From an uncultured virus (IMG/VR IMGVR_UViG_3300046513_000217) (lineage: Duplodnaviria > Heunggongvirae > Uroviricota > Caudoviricetes), in IMG/VR virus record IMGVR_UViG_3300046513_000217: a stretch of DNA of 64,000 nucleotides; one strand, written 5' to 3'. The notes under the pieces are model-generated. The model did not search any database. It was not told the origin of the DNA and saw only the letters and a program-made list of their open reading frames with translations. Both the position numbers and the translations under genes were made by a program. The stretch's first letter is position 1, and every line of letters begins with the position of its first letter. This document shows, piece after piece, positions 3,949 to 60,205 of this stretch.

Positions 3949-4239
3949 ATGCAGAAAAAGAAGAGCTACATCGTTGCCGCATCCTTTTGGCATGACGGCA
4001 TCCTGCTTCCGGTCGGCAAGGAAATCTGGCTGTTCCCCTCCGAAGCCAAATATCGCGGCCACGCGCTGACGGACCCGGATGCTGTCCAGGCCGTTGCGCC
4101 GGCTCCCGCCGACGAGCAGCCTGCTGCCCCCGTCCAAGCTGAGCCCGAACTCACCGTCGAGGTGAGCGAGGTGGTCGATCCGAAGCCCGCGCGCACCAAG
4201 CGCGTGAAGGCCGCGGGTGCCGAAGATGGCGCAGAGTAA
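3949..4239 (+). CDS. Hypothetical baseplate-region protein
   Basis: ORF between gpV and gpW with genome-typical codon use. Confidence 0.55.
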   Translation: MQKKKSYIVAASFWHDGILLPVGKEIWLFPSEAKYRGHALTDPDAVQAVAPAPADEQPAAPVQAEPELTVEVSEVVDPKPARTKRVKAAGAEDGAE

Positions 4240-44296: not shown

Positions 44297-47200
44297 TTAG
44301 GAGCAGCCCGTCGTCTCGCCGCACGACTCGCACTTCAGGCAGGTGCCGTTCCGCACCATCTGGAAGCTTGAGCAGTTGCCGCAGCTGTCGCCCGTGTAAC
44401 CGGACATCTTCGCGACCGCGCGCTTATCAGGCAACACCGTCGTTTTGACCTGCGAGACGATCTTCTCCAGGACAGCGTCCGACGCATCAGCCACGTTGAC
44501 CGTGATCTGATTGCTGACGTTGACCACCGGCATGGCCATCCCGACCGAGGTATTCTCGCTCTCGTCGGGGGTGACGTGAGCCAGATCATCGCGGCCGGCG
44601 TAGTTGATGCCGAGGTCTCGCCAGACGAAGTCGATGATCGACGACGCGCTCTTGACCCGCTCGTGCGACTGGACAAAGCCAGCCGGCTCGAACTTGAAGA
44701 ACGTGAAGGCGTCCACATACTCCTCGACCGGAACTCCGTACTGGAGGCCGATGCTGATGGCGATCGCGTAGGCGTTCATCATGGATCGGAAGGCGGCGCC
44801 CTCCTTATGCATGTCGATGAAGATCTCACCGAGCCGACCATCCGGGTACTGCCCGGTGCGGAGGTAGACCTTGTGACCTGCCACGATGGACTTCTGCGTG
44901 TAGCCAACGCGCTTGTCCGGCATCCGCTCGCGCTTCCGCACGATCTTCTCGACCACCTTGATGACGTCCTGCTTGACCTCAACGATCGAGGGCTCGTCAA
45001 CTTCGTCCTGATCATCGACCAGAGCAGAGCTGAGCGGCTGGGACAGCTTCGAACCATCGCGATAGATCGCGTTGGCCTTCAGTCCCAGCTTCCACGACAT
45101 CATGTAGGCCTTGCTGATGTCCTCCACCGTAGCATCGTTCGGCATGTTGATCGTCTTGGAGATTGCACCCGAGATGAACGGCTGAACCGCAGCCATCATC
45201 TTGATGTGACCCTTCCAGTGGATCGATCGCGTGCCGCTCTTGCCGCACGGGGTCGCGCAGTCGAAGACCGAATAGTCGGCGACGTCCAGACCCGGAGCGC
45301 CCTCCAACGTCATCGTTCCGCAGGCGTAGATGTTGGCCTGTTCGATCTCCGGCTCGGAGAAGCCCAACTTGTCCCATTCCGCGAGGAAGCGGATGTCGAA
45401 GGTGGACCGAACATCCTGCTCGGTGATCGTCAGGCCAGCAGCTTTCGCAGCCAGCTCGAACTTCGCCGGCAAGCTGCCGTGCCCCGTGGCGTACGTCGTG
45501 ATAGCGTCGATGTCCGCCGCGGTGTAGCCAAGCACATTCAGGGCCGCCGTGACCGACTGGTTGATGATCTTGAAGTAGCCACCGCCGGCCAGCTTCTTGA
45601 ACTTCACCAGTGCATAGTCCGGCTCGATGCCCGTCGTGTCGCAGTCCATCACCAGGCCGATCGTCCCGGTCGGGGCGATCACCGTCGTCTGGGCGTTGCG
45701 GAAACCGCTGTAGGCACCCATACGCAGGACCTCGTCCCAGATGTCGCTGGCCGTCTGCGCCAGGCCGTCCTGATACTCGTGCTCCCAATCGAGACCTTCC
45801 GGCCGGATGGAGAGACCAGCATAGGGGACCGAGCCGCTCTTTTCGGCAGCCGCATGATGGTTGTGCATCACCCGCATCATGGATGCGGCGTTCTCCTCGT
45901 ATTTGGGGAACGCACCCAGAGCTTCAGCCATCTCAGCCGACGTGCGATAGGCCACGCCGGTCATGATCGCAGAGATTGCCCCGGCGAGAGCACGAGCCTC
46001 GTCGGAGTCGTACGCGATGCCAGCCTGCATCAGCATGCCGCCCAGGTTGGCAAAGCCGAGACCCGTGGTGCGGTACTGATAGGAGAGCAGCGCGATCTCC
46101 TTCGACGGGAACTGAGCCATGGTGATCGAGATGTCGAGCACGATTTCGATCAGACGGCAGGCATGGATGAAGCTGCTGTCGTCGAACACGAGCGGACCGT
46201 TGCCGTGCCGCGTCGTGAACTTCATCAGGTTGGCCGAGGCCAGGTTGCACGCCGTGTCGTCCAGGAACATGTACTCCGAGCACGGGTTGGACGCGCGGAT
46301 GCGACCGCCGGCCGGGCAGGTGTGCCAGTCGTTCATGGTCGTGTTGAAGTGCAGACCCGGGTCAGCAGACTCCCAGGCAGCACGACAGATCTGGTCCCAG
46401 AGGGCTCGGGCCTTGACGGTCTTCATGACCTTGCCGTCTTTGCGAGACTTCAACTCCCAATCCATGCCGAGCTGAACGGCCTGCAGGAAGTCGTCCGTCA
46501 CCGACACCGTGTTGTTCGAGTTCTGACCCGACACGGTCTCGTAGGCTGCCGACTGCCAATCGACATCGAACTCGGGGAAGTCGAACCCTTCGCCTTCTTC
46601 AGCGAGCTGCAAGACACGCTTGATGTACGTGTCCGGCAGGAAGGCAGCGCGAGCCTGACGGATCGCTTCCTTCGTCTTGGGGTCCTTATCGCCGCGGGCG
46701 ACGCACTGGTTGTATACCTCCTTCAGATACTTCTTGGCAGCCTTCGAACCGGCCACCAGAGCCGCAACCTTCTTCTCCTCCTCGACCTTCCAGCCGATGA
46801 ACTCCGGGACGTCCGGATGATCGACATCGACCACGACCATCTTGGCCGCGCGCCGCGTCGTCCCGCCCGACTTGATCGCGCCGGCTGCCCGGTCACCGAT
46901 CTTGAGGAACGACATCATTCCCGACGACGTGCCGCCGCCCGACAGCTTCTCACCCTTGCCACGCAGGCTCGAGAAATTGGTGCCGGTGCCGGAGCCGTAC
47001 TTGAACAGTCGAGCCTCTCGGACCCACAGGTCCATGATGCCGCCTTCCTTGATCAGGTTGTCGCCGATCGACTGGATGAAGCAGGCGTGAGGCTGCGGGC
47101 GCTCATAAGCGGAGGTCGAAGCCAGAACCTGCGGCATCATGGTGATGTCGCGGTCGTCAACGTAGAAGTGACCCTGGGCCGGTCCGTCGATGCCGTACGC

Positions 47201-47731
47201 CCAATGCAGACCGGTGTTGAACCACTGCGGAGAGTTGGGAGCGAACATCTGGGTGGCGAGCATGAAGCGCAGCTCGTCGAAGAAGGCGAGAGCGTTCGAC
47301 TCCCCATCCTCATTGAGGTCGGCGATGGTGACGTACTGGCTCATGGAGCCGGGCTTGAAGTAGCCGTGCTTCCAGCCCCAATAGGTCCAGCAGCCCGCGA
47401 GACGGTCGAACACCTGCTTGGCCGAGGTCTCGGAGGTCAGATAGTCCTTGGCGTATTCGGTCGGGTAGGGCATTGCGACGCTGCGCTGAAGCCACTCCGG
47501 AACGCCGTCCTCGGCGACCTTCGTCAGCTCACGCGGCACGCCGGCTTTGCGGAAATACTTCTGCGCCAGGACGTCGACCGCAACCTGCGACCATCCTTCG
47601 GGCACCTCGATGCCCTCCAGACGGAAGACGACAGAGCCATCCGTGTTCTTGATCTCGCTGACAGCATTGCGCCAGCCGATCATGGCGTAGGGTGAGACGC
47701 CGGCCTTCGTGTATCGTCGCTCAATTCTCAT
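44297..47731 (-). CDS. nrdJ: Class II (B12-dependent) ribonucleotide reductase
   Basis: [32 protein letters not shown]-terminal TSCPD-like domain and Zn ribbon. Confidence 0.95.
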
Positions 47732-52968: not shown

Positions 52969-53940
52969 TTATGCCGCTTCTTCAGCGGCGGGTTTCTCGT
53001 TGGTGTTGGCGGCTTCCGGCTTCTTGCGGGAGGCCCGGGGTTTCGGCGCAGGCTTCTCTTCCTCAACCGGCGGCGGCAGGTTCGCGGCGTCAGCCACGGC
53101 CTCCTTGATGGCCTCCTCGTCGAACTTGATCAGCTGCTTGCCGTCCTTCGACAGGTTGATCGCAACGCCCTTGCCGGCTGCCGACTTAGCGTCGGCCGGG
53201 AAGAGCTTCTTGATCGCCTTCTTCGCCTTCTCGTGCCTCTCGACAGACGGCTTCGTGCTGAGCAGCGTGAAGGCCAGATCGCACCACTCGTTGTTGGTGG
53301 TCATGTCGTGGATCTTGATGCGCTCGGCGATCGGGATCTCGATCTTCGGCGCGCCCGGCGTGCGGCCGGTGACGACGCAGTCCCAGAAGTCCTTCTCGGC
53401 TTCGAGCAGGGCGAGCTGGTAGAACAGGTCAGCCTCGACATCGAGAATGACGTGCTGAGCGGCGCCGGTCAGGATCGACAGGTATCCCTTCGGCAGATCC
53501 GTCACCATCATGTTGTGCTGGACCTGCGGGTAATACTTCTCGTACGCCTCCTGCTTGTTGAAGCCGAAGGGGAACATGAACTTGAACTCGACGATGGCGA
53601 TCGGGTCCGACTCCGGCGTCCGGCGCACCAAGCCGTCGAGCGTCGTGTGAGCCAGCTCCCAGGCGTAGTAGTGGACCTTCTTCTGCTCGTCGGTGACGTG
53701 CATATCCATCTCGTCCTCGAACAAGTCGGCGTTCAGAGGCTCGGTCAGGTTGCCAAGGTTGATCAGGATCACCTCGTCGAGGTTCTCCGGAACAGCTTCG
53801 CCGCGCTTCTCCAGCCACAGGCGCTCGATCGCGTCCTGGTCGCCGGACATGATGATCTTGGCGTCGGATCCGCCGATCGACTTCATACGGGCGGCGCGAG
53901 CCTCTTCGCTCATGCCGATGTGGCCAGTTCGCTTCCTCAT
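52969..53940 (-). CDS. YqaJ-like (lambda-exonuclease family) nuclease
   Basis: IGGSDA, LW.EK.G, G...EP, TLDG, EFK, Y.PQVQH.M.V. Confidence 0.85.
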   Translation of the reverse strand: MRKRTGHIGMSEEARAARMKSIGGSDAKIIMSGDQDAIERLWLEKRGEAVPENLDEVILINLGNLTEPLNADLFEDEMDMHVTDEQKKVHYYAWELAHTTLDGLVRRTPESDPIAIVEFKFMFPFGFNKQEAYEKYYPQVQHNMMVTDLPKGYLSILTGAAQHVILDVEADLFYQLALLEAEKDFWDCVVTGRTPGAPKIEIPIAERIKIHDMTTNNEWCDLAFTLLSTKPSVERHEKAKKAIKKLFPADAKSAAGKGVAINLSKDGKQLIKFDEEAIKEAVADAANLPPPVEEEKPAPKPRASRKKPEAANTNEKPAAEEAA

Positions 53941-53969
53941 GGTGCAAATCCTTGCATTCAAACAAATGG

Positions 53970-54644
53970 TTAGACGTACTCGCGCCAGATGGCCTTATCG
54001 CCGAGCGTCTCGACGAAAGCCCTATGGGCGGTGATTTCCTCGTTGGTCAGGCGCTTCGACAGCGGCGTGGGCCGCTGCAGAGTCTTTGGCGTTGCGAACT
54101 GCTCCTCTTCCTTGAGGAGGTCCATCTGCATTCCGAATTGCCGGCCGCCGCACATCTCCACGTAGACCTGAGCCAGAAGCTCGGAGTCGAGGAGAGCGCC
54201 GTGCGTCGTTCTTCTCGATGCGTCGATGCCGTAGACCGAGCAGAGCGCATCAAGGGTGTGCCGGCGTCGAGGATGGATCTTCTTCGCCAACTCCAGAGTG
54301 TCGACCACCTCGTTCTCAAGCGGGGCAATGTCGAGCCTGTCCAGCTCTTCATTGATCATCCCCATGTCGAAGGACGCATTGTGGATCACCAGCCTGGCGC
54401 CCTCGATAAAGCTCAAGAACCGGTTGTGGATCCGCTTGAAGGTCGGCTTCGTGCGAAGAAAGACGTCGCTGAGGCCGTGGACCTTGTAGGCTTCCTTGTG
54501 AACGGGGACGGTCGGGTTGCAGTATTGGTGGTAGACCCGTTCGGTCGGCACCATGTCGACCATCTCGACACAGCCGATCTCGCAGATTCGATCGGTCTTC
54601 CGGTCGAGCCCCGTGGTCTCTGTGTCGAGAATGATTTCCCTCAT
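53970..54644 (-). CDS. dnaQ: DNA polymerase III epsilon-like 3'-5' exonuclease
   Basis: LDTETTGL, HNASFD, HGALLDS; C-terminal H..F......AIW. Confidence 0.9.
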   Translation of the reverse strand: MREIILDTETTGLDRKTDRICEIGCVEMVDMVPTERVYHQYCNPTVPVHKEAYKVHGLSDVFLRTKPTFKRIHNRFLSFIEGARLVIHNASFDMGMINEELDRLDIAPLENEVVDTLELAKKIHPRRRHTLDALCSVYGIDASRRTTHGALLDSELLAQVYVEMCGGRQFGMQMDLLKEEEQFATPKTLQRPTPLSKRLTNEEITAHRAFVETLGDKAIWREYV

Positions 54645-54878
54645 CGTCGCGATACTCTCCTGGTGAACGGGTCGATCCCGTCCTCACGCATCTGGACGTT
54701 CATTTGGTGATGCACCCGATCCAAGACGGCTTCGGATGCAGCGAGATAGGCGGACCGCGCCAGGTCGATTTCGTGCGGCGATGCTCCAGCGAGGACCGCC
54801 GCCTGAAACCGTGCCAGAGTGGACGTCTGAACATGCAAAGCGGAATGCATGTTCAGGTAGGCGTCCGCCCCTTCCTGG

Positions 54879-55514
54879 CTACGCTGCGCCACGAGCCGCG
54901 GTCTTTTCGAGCTCGATGCCGGTCCGCACTTCAAAGCGGCGCAGCAGCGCGATGACTTCGTCCGCGTTGAACTTCGAGTAGAGACCGTCCAGCGACGCCG
55001 GCTGATCCTTGAAGAAGGTCGAGGTCGGCTTCTCGATCGGATAGATGTCCTCGAACTGGACCAGCATCAGCACCGTGTCGTTGCCGGCGATGCGGATGGT
55101 GTGCAGGTCATCGGCCTGCATGTAGTAGGACTCGCCGTTGATGAACCGGCTGCGGTGAGCCTCGTACAGCATCTCCTCACCAGCGAAGGTGAAGCCGTTG
55201 CCGCCGTTCATCGGGGTGCGGTATTCGAACCAGTTGAAGATCTTGCCCAGTTCGTCGTTCATGGTCCGGCGGAACCAGACGTTCTCGACCGCGCCGGCCG
55301 CGACGTAGGTCTCGAAGTCGTAGCGATGATCGTGCGGCGCGATGACCTCGGGCATGGAGTTCACGTCGCCGTCGAAGAAGTACAGCTTGACCGTCTCCGT
55401 CTCCGAACGCTGGAGGCAGAGATAGTGGAAGCCCTTGGTGTGGAGGTCCTTGAAGGAATGCTCGACGATATGGTCGATATCCAGTCTCTGGGGGATCGGC
55501 AGATCACGCAGCAT
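54879..55514 (-). CDS. Cupin-fold protein
   Basis: PHDHRYDF...LHTI His motif; overlaps radical SAM gene. Confidence 0.6.
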   Translation of the reverse strand: MLRDLPIPQRLDIDHIVEHSFKDLHTKGFHYLCLQRSETETVKLYFFDGDVNSMPEVIAPHDHRYDFETYVAAGAVENVWFRRTMNDELGKIFNWFEYRTPMNGGNGFTFAGEEMLYEAHRSRFINGESYYMQADDLHTIRIAGNDTVLMLVQFEDIYPIEKPTSTFFKDQPASLDGLYSKFNADEVIALLRRFEVRTGIELEKTAARGAA

Positions 55515-56457
55515 CGATAGCTCCTGGGGTGTGAACGAGGGGAAGGCCGCGGCCGATGCTCGGCTTGGCCAATTCGGGGTGTTCCTTCATCCAGTTCTGG
55601 ACGAACCAGAGCTGGCCGCAGCCGCCGCCGATGGTGTCCTGGCCGGCAGGATCGAACACACGGACGTCGAAGCCGCGCTCGACCAGCTTGATGCTGAAGT
55701 CGCTCGCCAGCCCGCGCTGGTGGTCGTTGGTGGCCGGCAGGCCTTCGGAGCGCTCGCAGACCACGCTGACGGTGGCGTTCCAGATCTGCGGATCGAACAG
55801 CGCCAACAGCCGATCAGCGTCCTCTGCCGAGGAGTTGCCGTCGTGGGCGCAGTAGTTGAAGAACGGGTGGCGGCCGGTGACCTCGTTCCAGATCTTGCCT
55901 TCGCGGGCGATCTGAGCGAGCGTCAGCTTTGCCTTGAACGGAACCAGGGCGTCACGGGCAGCGTCCGTCGACTCGTGGACGGAGAACTGCAGGCCGATCG
56001 TCGGGATCTCCATCGAGATTTCCCGCACCATCTCGTAGTTGATGCTGGGCGCCGAGGTCGAGATCAGCAACGCGGCGTTGGGATAGTTCTTGTAGAGCTG
56101 GCGGAGCGCCGGGATCAGGCCCTTCAGGTTCAGGAGCGGCTCGCCCATGGACATGAACATGATCTGGAGACGCTTCATCTCCGAAGCGCGGATGCCGGTC
56201 TGCTCGATGGAGTGGCCGACCTGGTCGACGATCTCCTCGGTGGACAGCGATCTGACGAAGTTGTCGCCGGCACCGCAGAAGCGGCAGCCGACCGGGCAGC
56301 CCGATTGCGTCGAGCAGCAGATCACGGTGCGCGTGGCATAGTCGGGGTACTTGTAGAGCACCGACTCCGCGACTGCGGTGGCGCTGCTGAACACGAACTT
56401 CGCAACGTTCTGGGCAGCATCGTCGATGCGCCTCACGTTGGTCCAGGTCTGTCTCAT
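55504..56457 (-). CDS. RlmN/Cfr-like radical SAM methyltransferase
   Basis: CCSTQSGCPVGCRFC, MSMGEPLLN, GGCGQL. Confidence 0.85.
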   Translation of the reverse strand: MRQTWTNVRRIDDAAQNVAKFVFSSATAVAESVLYKYPDYATRTVICCSTQSGCPVGCRFCGAGDNFVRSLSTEEIVDQVGHSIEQTGIRASEMKRLQIMFMSMGEPLLNLKGLIPALRQLYKNYPNAALLISTSAPSINYEMVREISMEIPTIGLQFSVHESTDAARDALVPFKAKLTLAQIAREGKIWNEVTGRHPFFNYCAHDGNSSAEDADRLLALFDPQIWNATVSVVCERSEGLPATNDHQRGLASDFSIKLVERGFDVRVFDPAGQDTIGGGCGQLWFVQNWMKEHPELAKPSIGRGLPLVHTPGAIDAA

Positions 56458-57044
56458 GCGTAAAATTCCTTGAAAGCGATACCGTCCGCCGGAACGATGC
56501 CGGGGGTTTTCTTCAGGCCGGTCAGGATGAAACCGATCGTCCTGGTGCGAATGTCGTAGGAGACCTGCCGATCCCGCGTGCGGGGGCTGGTCGGCCGGTA
56601 GATCTTGTGGACCAGCTCGGAGTCGCCGCCGCGAGCGAGGGCGATTGCAGCCTTGCTCAGGCGCTCCGGGATGCGGGCAGAGTTGAGGAAGCGCATCCAG
56701 GCGAGGACGCCGAGAGCGCGATCAACGTCGTTCCGCTGCGGCGAGGTCTTGGCCTTGCCGTCGAATGGCTTCATGGCGCAGAGCAGCCTGATCTTCTCGA
56801 TCTCGACCATCTCGGCACGCGACATGCCGACCATGTTCCAGCCGCCAGATCTCTGACCGGACGTAAGCCATCGCCGCTCAGTGTCCGGCGTCTTGTCGAT
56901 GACCTCGACGGCCTCGACGAGAAGTTGCCAGATCACGTCGGAATGACGCGCTTGATCACCCTTCAGCGCCACAGCCAGCTCGCCACCATGGGCGAGCCAG
57001 CCGAGCGTGTTCGTGCGATCCTCAAGCAGGGACGAAGTTGTCAT
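56454..57044 (-). CDS. Hypothetical protein
   Basis: Coupled ORF. Confidence 0.55.
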   Translation of the reverse strand: MTTSSLLEDRTNTLGWLAHGGELAVALKGDQARHSDVIWQLLVEAVEVIDKTPDTERRWLTSGQRSGGWNMVGMSRAEMVEIEKIRLLCAMKPFDGKAKTSPQRNDVDRALGVLAWMRFLNSARIPERLSKAAIALARGGDSELVHKIYRPTSPRTRDRQVSYDIRTRTIGFILTGLKKTPGIVPADGIAFKEFYA

Positions 57045-57372
57045 TCCTGATATCCGAGCCCGTGGTTTTGCTGCCGGAGACCCGGCGGCGGGTTGCGCGG
57101 TATTCGAAGAGGTTCGCGCCGATGCGGAGCTGCGTCAGATGAAGCAGGCCCTGCTTCGAGTCCTTGAAGGCTCGATCGGCAACGAAGTGGAGAGCGCTGA
57201 TGCGAGCGCGCTCGGTTGAGCGGAGGACGTCATCGGCCGAGACCACCACCTGACGGTCGTACTGGAGGTCGCCCTGCCAGTAGACGAGGACGTCGCCATC
57301 GGCAGCGCCCTTCATCCAGTCGTAGTATTCAGCCAACGCGCCCGGACCGATTTCCAGGACGGTTCTCGTCAT
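57022..57372 (-). CDS. Hypothetical protein
   Basis: W...A..GD..VY..G.L...L.Q.R.....FEY.A.R. Confidence 0.55.
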   Translation of the reverse strand: MTRTVLEIGPGALAEYYDWMKGAADGDVLVYWQGDLQYDRQVVVSADDVLRSTERARISALHFVADRAFKDSKQGLLHLTQLRIGANLFEYRATRRRVSGSKTTGSDIRNDNFVPA

Positions 57373-57779
57373 TGCGCCACCAGCTCCGTCAGCAGAGCTG
57401 CGTGGATCTCGACGACCGTCGTCAGGCCCTCGATGATGCGACCGAGCTGAGCGACAGCCTCGATCTTGTCATCCTGGGACATTTCGATCGGATCGAAGTC
57501 GAAGTCCGGCTCGAACACGACTTCCAGCTCGTCCTCGTCGTCCTCGTCGGCGGGGTCGGTCTCGTCGCCGCTGTCGCGGGCGAGGCCGGGATCGAACTGC
57601 GCGGTCAGGAAGTCGGGGAAGCCCGAGCCCTCACCGAGGCACAAGCCGGGCGGGCAGTCGCACAGCTCAGGCTTCTCGCCGAAGGCGCCGAGCAGGGTCA
57701 GGAAGCTGAGCAGCTCCGGGGACCAGCCAGCCTTGGCCAGGGCGTCCGCGCTGATGTCTTCCGGGTTGAAGGCTTTCAT
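57369..57779 (-). CDS. Acidic hypothetical protein
   Basis: GGAG RBS following a motif copy. Confidence 0.5.
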   Translation of the reverse strand: MKAFNPEDISADALAKAGWSPELLSFLTLLGAFGEKPELCDCPPGLCLGEGSGFPDFLTAQFDPGLARDSGDETDPADEDDEDELEVVFEPDFDFDPIEMSQDDKIEAVAQLGRIIEGLTTVVEIHAALLTELVAQ

Positions 57780-57817
57780 TCGTACTCCGTTTGCAATCGT
57801 GCAAATCATTGGATGTG

Positions 57818-57860
57818 AAAAAGGGGCGCCCTGGCACGCACAACCAAAACAGGGCGCCCC
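57818..57860 (-). terminator. Terminator after ssb
   Basis: ggggcgccctg/cagggcgcccc stem with A-run on + strand. Confidence 0.65.
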
Positions 57861-57933
57861 TCGATATTCCCCGCTCAACGGGGAAGCTCAGATCAGTCCG
57901 AACCGCATCCGGTCCAGGGTCGACAGCCGTTCA

Positions 57934-58593
57934 TCAAAACGGAATGTCGTCGTCCATGTCCTTGTTGCGACCCGAGGAGGCGGTGTTGCCACCGCGGCCG
58001 CCGCCACGGTCGTCACGGCCACGGTCGTTGTCACGGTCATTGCCACGGCTGCCACCACGGCTGCTGCCACGGTCATCGCCGCCACGGTCGTCGTCGCGGG
58101 AGTTGCCACGGCTCGACGAGGAACCGCGGCTGCCGCGGTCATCCTTGCCGCCGCGATCGTCGCGGTCACGGCTGTTGCCGCTGCTGCGGGAGCTTCCGCC
58201 ACGATCGTCACGGTCGCCGCCGCTCTTGTTGTCGTTGTCGAACGACAGCTTCATCAGCGCATCGATCGGGGCGAAGGCGGGGATGACGATCTCGGTCGAG
58301 TAGCGATCCTTGCCGTCCTGATCTTCCCATTTGCGGGTCTGGATCTTGCCTTCGAGGCGGACGAGGTCACCCTTCTTCAGGTACTTCTCGACGAACTCGA
58401 TCGTCTTCTCGTTCCAGACGACGATGTTGTGCCACTCGGTCTTCTCCTGCTTTTCGCCGGAGCGCTTGTCCTTCCAGCTCTCGCTGGTGGCGACGCTGAA
58501 GTTGGCGACGGAAGAACCGTTCGAGAGGTTCTTCACCTCGGGGTCCTTGCCGAGGCGGCCGATCAGCTCAACCTTGTTCAAACTTGATGCCAT
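57934..58593 (-). CDS. ssb: Single-stranded DNA-binding protein
   Basis: [27 protein letters not shown]-terminal DDDIPF. Confidence 0.95.
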
Positions 58594-58651
58594 TGGTCTC
58601 TCCTTCTGTGGTTTGCATTAGCAGTTCGTTTGCATTCAAGCAAGCGTTATT

Positions 58652-60205
58652 TCAAAAAAGTGGCTTCACGAACAGTCCGGTGGTCTCGTTGAACGACATG
58701 ATCGCCGAACCGGTGTTGCCGGCGATACGCTTGAGACGCACCTTCGGGATCATGATCTTGCGCGAGTTCGGATCCTCAGCGTCGTCCGCGTGGACGATGA
58801 TGCCGAGGTCCGGCTTGTTCGCCCAGTGAGCGGAGTCCGAGATGCTGTACAGGCCGGGGATTGCTCCCGGGTCCAGCTTGGTGGGGTGAGCCACCACGAT
58901 GACGCAGACACCGAACTGCTTGGCGAACCTCTTCAGCTGCTTGATCGCCTTCCCGACATACTCGGTCAGCGACATCGCCCCGGGCCGGTTGTGCTCAAGC
59001 TCGTTCCACGGATCGATGATCAGGCACTTGACGCCATCGCGGAACACCGCGGCGGCTGCCGTGTCGATCAGGAACTTCACGTCGATCTCGAAGTCCTTGC
59101 TGTCGTCGTAGTCGATGAACTGGAAGTAGCGCTCGACGAAGGCCTCCGCTTTCTTCTTCTCCTCGAACGACCATGCCTTGCGCTCCTTGTCGAGGAACGC
59201 GGTCATCAGCTCGTGTGCCAGGAACGGCTTGACGTCCTTCTCACCCGAGAAGATGGCGATCGGCCATTTGTGCTTCTTCGCCAGCAGCACCGCGACCTGG
59301 TTGATCAGGGTCGACTTGCCGACGTTGGGCGTGCCGGTGCAGACGACGAACTGGCCGCCGTAGAACTTCATCAGCGTGTCCAACTCCTCGGACAGGCCGA
59401 TTTCGCACATGGTCGGGATGTCCAGCTCCGGATAGTCGGAGAGACGGAACAGGCCCTTGACCGGCCACGGCTTCACGTTGTCGAGCATCTCCTGGACGCG
59501 CTCGGCGCCGAGATACTTCTTGACCTCGTTCAGATCCTTGCACGATCTGAACTCGCCCTTGTTCTTCTTGTCGGGAACGACCTGGTCATCCGGGAACGTG
59601 ACCCAGAAGCACTTGGCTGCACCGAGACGTCTGACCAATTCCTTGGCGAGGCGCTGGCCGGGCTCGTCGGCGTCGGTGCAGATGATGTGGTGCTTGACCT
59701 CCATCAGCTCGTTCATCAGCCGGCCCATGAAGGCGAACTTGTCGTCGTCCTCGGGATCGATATCTCGATCGTCATCCGGCACGTTGATCAGCTTGCCCTT
59801 GGCGTCGCGAGCCGGCGGCGCGCCATCGGGGACCGAGACGATCGTGTCGTAGCCGCATTCCTTACCGGCTTGGACGTCGAACTCGCCCTCGACCCAGATC
59901 AGCGACTCCGCCCCGCAGGCGAGGGCGTCCATCAGACGCTTGTCGAACAGAACGTCCGCGTTGTAGAGCGTCTTGACCGCGTCCTTGCGCTGCATGAAGC
60001 GGCGCTGCCCGTCCTGCGACCACCGGTATTTGGTGTTCACCTCGACGCCGTGCTCGAAGTACGGGAAGCAGAGGATGTTGCCGTTCAGGTCAGCTTCGAT
60101 TGACCCATCGCGCAAGCGACGCCCGCTGTAGTGCCCCATAGCCGCCGACATTTCGACGCTCAGGCCGCGATCCTCGATCCCCCGTGCGTGCTTCTCGTTT
60201 AGCAT
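58652..60205 (-). CDS. Toprim primase + SF4 helicase (T7 gp4/Twinkle-like), lacking N-terminal Zn domain
   Basis: VEGEFD, SVPDGA, D.DEPG, CKDLNE, TGTPNVGKS, IIDPWN, VAHP.K. Confidence 0.88.
   Translation of the reverse strand: MLNEKHARGIEDRGLSVEMSAAMGHYSGRRLRDGSIEADLNGNILCFPYFEHGVEVNTKYRWSQDGQRRFMQRKDAVKTLYNADVLFDKRLMDALACGAESLIWVEGEFDVQAGKECGYDTIVSVPDGAPPARDAKGKLINVPDDDRDIDPEDDDKFAFMGRLMNELMEVKHHIICTDADEPGQRLAKELVRRLGAAKCFWVTFPDDQVVPDKKNKGEFRSCKDLNEVKKYLGAERVQEMLDNVKPWPVKGLFRLSDYPELDIPTMCEIGLSEELDTLMKFYGGQFVVCTGTPNVGKSTLINQVAVLLAKKHKWPIAIFSGEKDVKPFLAHELMTAFLDKERKAWSFEEKKKAEAFVERYFQFIDYDDSKDFEIDVKFLIDTAAAAVFRDGVKCLIIDPWNELEHNRPGAMSLTEYVGKAIKQLKRFAKQFGVCVIVVAHPTKLDPGAIPGLYSISDSAHWANKPDLGIIVHADDAEDPNSRKIMIPKVRLKRIAGNTGSAIMSFNETTGLFVKPLF

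Follow-up and report, generated by a model that had tools for sequence, protein, structure and literature searches.

The window analysed here, 64,000 nucleotides of DNA from an uncultured virus (IMG/VR record IMGVR_UViG_3300046513_000217), makes up the first 64 kb of a virus record that is 123,443 bases long. We focused on two overlapping genes of its minus strand: P0001 (55504..56457), which codes for a short RlmN/Cfr-like (class A type) radical S-adenosylmethionine (SAM) enzyme of 317 amino acids, as judged by the open reading frame (ORF) call, PF04055, TIGR00048 and a structural model, and P0002 (54879..55514), which codes for a phage cupin of 211 amino acids. A first-pass annotation had read them as a coupled module; the 11-nt overlap that it reported with a His-motif cupin gene was confirmed at 55504-55514, the cupin assignment coming from the predicted fold. 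On the other side, the stop of a conserved hypothetical gene of 196 amino acids (56454..57044, minus strand) overlaps the methylase start by 4 nt. This gene is the upstream border of a variable slot, the downstream border of which is, in most relatives, a small conserved ORF of about 70 amino acids with an uncertain start codon (54641..54871, minus strand). The dnaQ-like 3'-5' exonuclease gene (53970..54644, minus strand; TIGR01406 over its cut-off) and ssb (57934..58593, minus strand) do flank the pair, as had been noted, but not directly, since one small ORF separates it from dnaQ and three ORFs separate it from ssb. Purifying selection acts on both genes, with ratios of nonsynonymous to synonymous substitution rates of about 0.15-0.21 for the methylase (five pairwise comparisons with relatives) and about 0.10-0.28 for the cupin (three comparisons), and the closest named homologues of both proteins come from Bradyrhizobium genomes. 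A scan of 53500-58800 gave no sigma-70-like promoter and terminator-like sites only at chance level, and PADLOC matched none of four proteins.

The P0001 amino acid sequence contains a CxxxCxxC motif (C54/C58/C61), MSMGEP at positions 102-107 and the pair S159/H161. C47 aligns to C118 of E. coli RlmN, C280 (in GGGCGQL) to C355 and E31 to E105, confirming the earlier observation that the protein carries the cluster motif, MGEP and both RlmN-type mechanistic cysteines. We aligned 83 family members with 20 RlmN and 3 Cfr sequences; E105, C118, the three cluster cysteines, F131, M176, G179-E180-P181, S211, S233, H235 and C355 (E. coli RlmN numbering) are conserved in 99-100% of the 83. P0001 matched PF04055 over its cut-off, whereas it reached only 99.8 bits with TIGR00048 (cut-off 290), and 69.5 and 63.8 bits with the Cfr models TIGR04432/NF000424 (cut-offs 530 and 550). 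The TIGR00048 match covers profile positions 71-342 of 355, in agreement with the remark that the protein is shorter than RlmN and has lost its N-terminal domain, and PF21016, the RlmN N-terminal helical RNA-binding domain, gave no match in P0001. A split gene with this domain encoded elsewhere was rejected, as neither the window upstream of P0001 nor the phage genome yielded a sequence like it (best E 0.085).

The AlphaFold model of P0001 (predicted local distance difference test score, pLDDT, of 89) matched RlmN/Cfr structures at E 1.9e-19 to 1.6e-12, the next match being at 2e-6. With RlmN, the 23S rRNA m2A2503 / tRNA m2A37 methylase (PDB 3RFA, 5HR7, 6FZ6), it shares a common fold at template modelling (TM) scores of 0.64-0.72 and 20-26% identity; with Cfr, the 23S rRNA m8A2503 methylase (PDB 9P0P), it shares the catalytic cysteines and the fold (E 1.6e-12). 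In a quick maximum-likelihood tree of 68 rows, rooted at the midpoint, RlmN and Cfr were split from the family plus two distant phage proteins with a support of 99, so that the phylogeny proposed in the first-pass annotation as a check places the P0001 family on a separate long branch outside the RlmN/Cfr clade. P0001 is, judged by its sequence, an intact RlmN/Cfr-type (class A) radical SAM enzyme lying outside ordinary RlmN and Cfr. P0001 is very unlikely to be an ordinary RlmN or Cfr that was captured and methylates A2503 of 23S rRNA: RlmN/Cfr are its best family and structure matches and some sources call its homologues RlmN, but its scores fall far below all curated cut-offs, its branch is separate, and the residues W101, S103, S151, Q329 and F330 of Cfr are not kept (PMC12887959, in part). 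Nothing in P0001 points to the resistance function of Cfr. The labels RlmN and 23S rRNA methyltransferase, which homologues now carry in some sources, would be corrected by this assignment. Among 24 genomes with a P0001-type gene, 17 also have a full-length RlmN over the cut-off, two have RlmN fragments and five have the short form only.

The family is large: of 7996 candidates scored, 5707 proteins reach E<=1e-10, a number that may include ordinary RlmN. The best 120 homologues of P0001 are all at least 67% identical to it, a 50%-identity library holds 80 family representatives at E<=1e-30, and the three Atlas clusters nearest to P0001 are 67-84% viral. Four longer homologues (556-2000 amino acids) were found, one being an ordinary RlmN and the three others having inteins; the family members P0243, P0244 and P0245 carry a LAGLIDADG intein inserted beside the cluster motif. 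A more distant short RlmN-like domain is fused to an HD / HD_assoc phosphohydrolase in P0355 (759 amino acids); the HD part is presumably dGTPase-like, and the protein may stand for a further small-nucleotide branch or serve in defence. Additional short RlmN-like proteins of phages, from a Moorella phage (L115:4833-5657), a Pectobacterium phage (L116:4830-5705) and several of P0252-P0391, miss one or both mechanistic cysteines and differ in their pocket residues; from these sequences they appear to form a wider set of uncharacterised subfamilies.

We then compared the residues by which RlmN and Cfr hold their RNA. Cfr's N-terminal domain binds rRNA in a structure obtained by cryo-electron microscopy, and its S103, S151, S153 and S187 hold the phosphate 3' of the target (bioRxiv 10.64898/2026.02.27.707579). 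P0001 has no counterpart of the N-terminal domain residues, and the four serines are replaced by V45, Q98, M100 and L131, replacements found in 99-100% of the family. R206 of RlmN, which binds G29 of the tRNA (PMC5130265, in part), corresponds to R184 of Cfr and to A128 of P0001, while R344 of RlmN (R327 of Cfr), present in all 20 RlmN sequences, is F268 in P0001 and Phe in 100% of the family. The C8 determinants W101, S103, S151, Q329 and F330 of Cfr, needed for activity (PMC12887959, in part), become R43, V45, Q98, P270 and A271. R347 and E278 of RlmN are also absent, as are the Asn residues at RlmN 307 and 312, for which the register differs between two alignments. Conversely, Y35, Y37, Q98, M100, S103, L131, Q157, N201 and F268 are invariant pocket residues of the P0001 family that are new with respect to RlmN. 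Over the core columns the median net charge of the family is -8 (-6 for P0001) versus -1 for RlmN, and an acidic core, a mostly viral distribution and an NAD-salvage context (NAD, nicotinamide adenine dinucleotide) distinguish the family from RlmN. Within the family the RNA-contact replacements are fixed at 90-100%, and members of about 33% identity still show most of them, indicating a different and conserved pocket. Taken from the aligned residues, the RNA grip of RlmN and Cfr appears to be lost in the P0001 family.

The genes surrounding the family were analysed in 272 loci, which fell into 112 groups (75% identity, single linkage), 91 of them with at least 6 kb of flank. A core NAD gene (NAMPT/Namat, NadM, NadD, NadE, PncA, PncB or NadA) lies within 6 kb in 30 of these 91 groups, and the recurrent neighbours, named from representative sequences, are Nudix/NadM (22 groups), NAMPT (17), PncA (10) and PncB (10); no DNA-modification or translation gene is among the top recurring neighbours. 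This link emerged in the neighbour clustering and was confirmed when sets of 140, 84 and 112 neighbouring ORFs were compared with Pfam. When each panel query was barred from its own source group, an NAD gene was found in 12 of 40 and 11 of 35 viral groups. The control loci had one in 6 of 74 cases (thymidylate-synthase-like) and in 0 of 63 (adenine-methylase-like), both controls being window genes named from motifs by eye and neither dereplicated nor size-matched. At phage loci, nadE, nadD, pncA, pncB and nadA were found around methylase relatives, and the NAD-linked members are scattered over the tree, including a supported set of 13 rows that contains P0001 (with L020, L031, L033 and L043). 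In 50 whole records, a subset of 84 loci picked for long contigs, PF04095 (NAMPT/Namat) was present in 17; the phage NAD pathways NARP1 and NARP2 together are reported in 5.4% of sequenced phages (bioRxiv 10.1101/2024.02.11.579819, in part). In these 17 records the PF04095 gene lies at most 2.5 kb from the methylase in 8 and at most 6 kb in 9, where uniform placement would predict 0.94 and 1.9; this null is lax because accessory genes cluster in large phages.

The replication-module placement of the methylase had been taken as a clue to its substrate. This placement is lineage-specific, being limited to one phage lineage in which the slot is often empty, and NAD salvage is what recurs family-wide. 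Methylation of a free deoxynucleotide or of phage DNA to give a restriction-resistant base is accordingly quite improbable: P0001 lies between ssb/primase and dnaQ/recombination genes, and DNA methylase or HMUDK genes occur near a few loci, but the top recurring neighbours include no DNA-modification gene and the cellular copies lie in NAD clusters. The proposal that P0001 has another substrate than RlmN, namely tRNA, a free nucleotide or DNA, is thus probably right as to a change of substrate, while tRNA and DNA are less likely because the recurring neighbours belong to NAD salvage and not to DNA modification or translation.

Chromosomal copies and gene fusions make the NAD link sharper. In two Saccharibacteria loci (L098:4034-9586 and L101:2195-7736) the methylase is located between pncB-pncA and nrtR-nadE, in a chromosomal NAD salvage cluster within a housekeeping stretch between metG and tatD. 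An Ornithinimicrobium locus (L106) shows overlapping pncB, pncA, methylase and nrtR genes in this order, and L110 contains pncB, pncA, nadA, the methylase, an ADP-ribosylglycohydrolase gene and nadE. In a metagenome contig (L346:4124-7640), pncB is followed by a nicotinamidase-methylase fusion and then by nrtR. This fusion (P0397) joins a nicotinamidase-like domain, whose PRK11609 match is below its cut-off, to a methylase part 65% identical to P0001 in one open frame of more than 500 amino acids; as delimited, it has no exact match in the protein collection. As a lead only, 58 proteins of about 520 amino acids, all with PF00857, form an Atlas cluster that matches the P0001 model at a TM score of 0.80. 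P0270 is a methylase fused to a Nudix domain.

The NrtR operator core is a GT-N7-AC palindrome (PMC2330246, in part). In L098 and L101 such palindromes lie about 20-70 bp before the longest methylase frame, and they occur again before nadE, with 2 and 3 matches versus 0.01 and 0.03 expected; the pattern was derived from these two loci themselves, so that the count tests recurrence only. NrtR-type boxes of 21 bp also precede pncB in L346 (palindrome at 4091) and L110. None was found in the window at 54000-58700.

Altogether, we estimate at about 0.55 the probability that P0001 methylates a small molecule of the NAD pathway, most likely on a pyridine ring, and not RNA; the case for a non-RNA, NAD-related substrate is strong and testable. 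Several observations weigh against this reading. The P0001 phage itself, over its 123-kb genome, has no match to a panel of 23 NAD proteins (E<=0.01), no core NAD gene is nearby in 61 of the 91 groups, and NAMPT/Namat is missing from 33 of the 50 whole records; besides the lax placement null, the two controls lack genome-size matching. The L346 fusion, known from one metagenome contig, may have arisen in assembly by the merging of an overlapping pair. The palindrome of L098 and L101 sits between the divergent pncA and methylase genes and may serve pncA only, and such a box lies within 300 bp upstream in only 4 of the 272 loci. The residue mapping comes from sequence alignment alone, and K94, E105 and R114 of the RlmN pocket are retained, with like residues facing R249 (Arg) and Y97 of Cfr (Tyr) in the alignment, making the pocket compatible with an adenine nucleotide.

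Finally, tRNA or tmRNA genes occur near the methylase in 10 of 60 loci and RNA ligases near several (L049, L061, L064, L073 and L082). These neighbours would fit an enzyme that methylates adenine (C2 or C8) of tRNA or another RNA through a remodelled surface, for instance to protect tRNAs against anticodon nucleases; the neighbouring NAD genes would then merely reflect shared accessory islands. Every characterised relative acts on RNA adenines (PMC5130265, PMC9692996 and PMC12887959, each in part), the P0001 phage has seven tRNA genes elsewhere in its genome (G000:C1:91755-120948, beyond the window), and five of the 24 genomes have the short form only. We nevertheless consider an RNA substrate unlikely, as the family has an acidic core and lacks the N-terminal domain, R206, R344 and the residues that bind the phosphate, RlmN requires extended contacts and does not modify a 17-mer anticodon stem-loop (PMC5130265, in part), and chromosomal copies lie in purely NAD-related clusters, one copy being fused to a nicotinamidase.

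Within the NAD pathway, we tentatively favour the pyridine of nicotinamide, nicotinate or their nucleotides as the target. Pyridines are good Minisci acceptors. This choice is guided by that property, by the closest and fused partners (NAMPT, PncA and PncB), which handle the pyridine base, by the loss of the residues holding the ribose and phosphate of the target adenosine, and by the more hydrophobic pocket of an acidic protein. The adenine of NAD or ADP-ribose is a close but somewhat less probable alternative, backed by the ancestral chemistry, the retained K94 and R114, the Nudix neighbours and the Nudix fusion. It is less likely still that the enzyme belongs to the NAD pathway but uses its methyl-Cys radical for another chemistry, for example in making or repairing a pyridine precursor that enters via PncA/PncB. 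Such a role would suit its location in the salvage clusters of G013, G015 and G020, genomes that gave no NadA or NadC match (G013 also has no canonical RlmN), its proximity to nadA in L043 and L110, and the family-specific invariant pocket residues, including C203 and C234. However, both mechanistic cysteines and E105 are retained exactly as for methylation, the genomes without NadA or NadC may be incomplete, and G023 has NadA, NadB and NadC, so that no bypass is needed there. A NadA repurposed without NadB and NadC was also considered and is unsupported in G023, which has all three.

The chemistry of RlmN and Cfr comprises a methyl-Cys, H abstraction by a deoxyadenosyl radical, a Minisci-type addition and resolution by a second Cys (PMC9692996 and PMC5130265, both in part). 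By this scheme, a first SAM would methylate C280 of P0001, and a second SAM on the C54/C58/C61 cluster would yield the 5'-deoxyadenosyl radical; the resulting Cys-CH2 radical would add to an electron-poor ring carbon in a Minisci-type reaction, and C47 would resolve the adduct. Salvage enzymes, which for the P0001 phage would be those of the host, could then carry the product into a methylated NAD. The P0001 phage is without NAD genes and most carriers are without NAMPT, so the enzyme would often use host metabolites. A precedent is 6-aminonicotinamide, a ring-substituted nicotinamide that passes through PncA and PncB into an NAD analogue (PMC2330245, in part).

NAD depletion is a major bacterial defence, and to our knowledge the described phage answers to it either rebuild normal NAD or block the effectors. 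More speculatively, a methyl-NAD analogue might resist or inhibit the NAD-cleaving and ADP-ribosylating defence enzymes. Protection against NAD-cleaving defence is a plausible purpose, by analogy with what phage NAD pathways are known to do, and of all steps of the proposal it has the least support. For a slow radical enzyme, a low-level inhibitor seems more plausible than conversion of the whole NAD pool. The relatives of P0001 adjoin salvage genes of the NARP1 (Adps-Namat) and NARP2 (Nampt-Nmnat) types and of the Preiss-Handler type, and the same conflict over NAD is likely the setting of the NARPs, NARP3 included, and of the P0001 family. Salvage genes of this kind (Adps+Namat, Nampt+Nmnat or others) are present in many relatives and not in the P0001 phage. 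Unlike the P0001-type enzyme, which is often alone, as in the P0001 phage, the NARPs rebuild ordinary NAD without a radical SAM enzyme. The main texts of a viral NAD survey (PMC9503650) and of the NARP3 report (PMC13464706) do not mention such an enzyme, nor does the available portion of the main text of the NARP1/2 preprint (bioRxiv 10.1101/2024.02.11.579819). PMC5062987 and PMC4689488, in the portions available, cover RlmN, Cfr and a clostridial Cfr-like clade only. Our literature search found no description of the P0001 clade or of a natural methyl-NAD, although supplementary tables (Iyer 2022, Osterman 2024) might list the gene.

A large viral clade in which RlmN/Cfr chemistry comes with a rebuilt pocket and with ties to NAD salvage suggests that a methylated metabolite of the NAD pathway awaits description. 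As far as we know, the class A radical SAM methylases described are RlmN and Cfr, each of which acts on large RNAs. It is conceivable, though rather doubtful, that P0001 is the first small-molecule methylase of this type, methylating the pyridine of vitamin B3 or of its nucleotides for salvage enzymes to turn into a natural methyl-NAD that NAD-destroying defence enzymes do not cut or by which they are inhibited. If so, phages of many hosts, small-genome bacteria and archaea would share an anti-defence strategy that changes the cofactor instead of rebuilding it.

In order to evaluate the proposed coupling of methylase and cupin, we counted the occupants of the slot at loci anchored on the upstream 196-amino-acid gene. 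Of 28 loci from the family of the P0001 phage, three were dropped as their contigs end in the slot; of the 25 informative ones, 3 contain both genes, 4 the methylase without the cupin, 10 the cupin without the methylase and 8 neither gene. Independence predicts both genes in 3.6 slots, although these phages are related and not independent samples. A cupin gene lies near the methylase in 1 of the 91 sequence groups (6-kb flanks), and among 80 IMG/VR loci found with P0001, a few with little downstream DNA, 3 have it next to a methylase, which in each case is at least 92% identical to P0001. No further methylase-adjacent cupin was found in 4 isolate phages and 28 genome loci. Isolate phage records matching P0001 (40) and P0002 (42) do not overlap, and a cupin profile was positive in 2 of the 50 whole records, in neither case adjacent to the methylase. 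The cupin thus fails to co-occur with homologues, the outcome that the first-pass annotation had itself named as refuting its proposal. These counts largely refute a fixed methylase-cupin module, and the cupin is an independent cargo of the same variable slot, not a fixed partner. Joint action of the two proteins, with the cupin tailoring a methylated base, is therefore barely credible, even with the 11-nt overlap on the same strand and the two other records that have both genes somewhere in the genome.

P0002 matches phrog_8313, a family annotated as function unknown, and gave no Pfam cupin match. Its predicted structure (pLDDT 92.8) is a cupin barrel with an HxH...H arrangement, for which Foldseek returned generic cupins (best E 2.5e-6) and VIA gave Z scores up to 9.8, none outstanding among cupins. 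Across 102 homologues H61 and H63 do not vary and H138 is conserved in at least 90%, suggesting that His61, His63 and His138 form a probable metal site. The Atlas score of 0.76 to CDO_I is a lead only: P0002 shares the barrel and HxH...H with the three-His cupins (cysteine/thiol dioxygenases), but at just 10-20% identity and with no match above other cupins, so that no activity can be assigned. The cupin family counts 131 homologues with the invariant HxH (relatives at L152-L163), and Gordonia and Mycobacterium phages also carry members; the cupin neighbours in three isolate phages gave no consistent pointer to function.

Two further observations were made around the loci. A UDP-glucose/GDP-mannose dehydrogenase-like gene lies beside the methylase and NadM-Nudix in three groups (L024:6995-9310, L056:3121-4059 and L078:3711-4829), the first of which also has an O-methyltransferase. 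In the window, the gene of 1144 amino acids at 44297-47731 codes for what we take by its appearance to be a class II (B12-dependent) ribonucleotide reductase.

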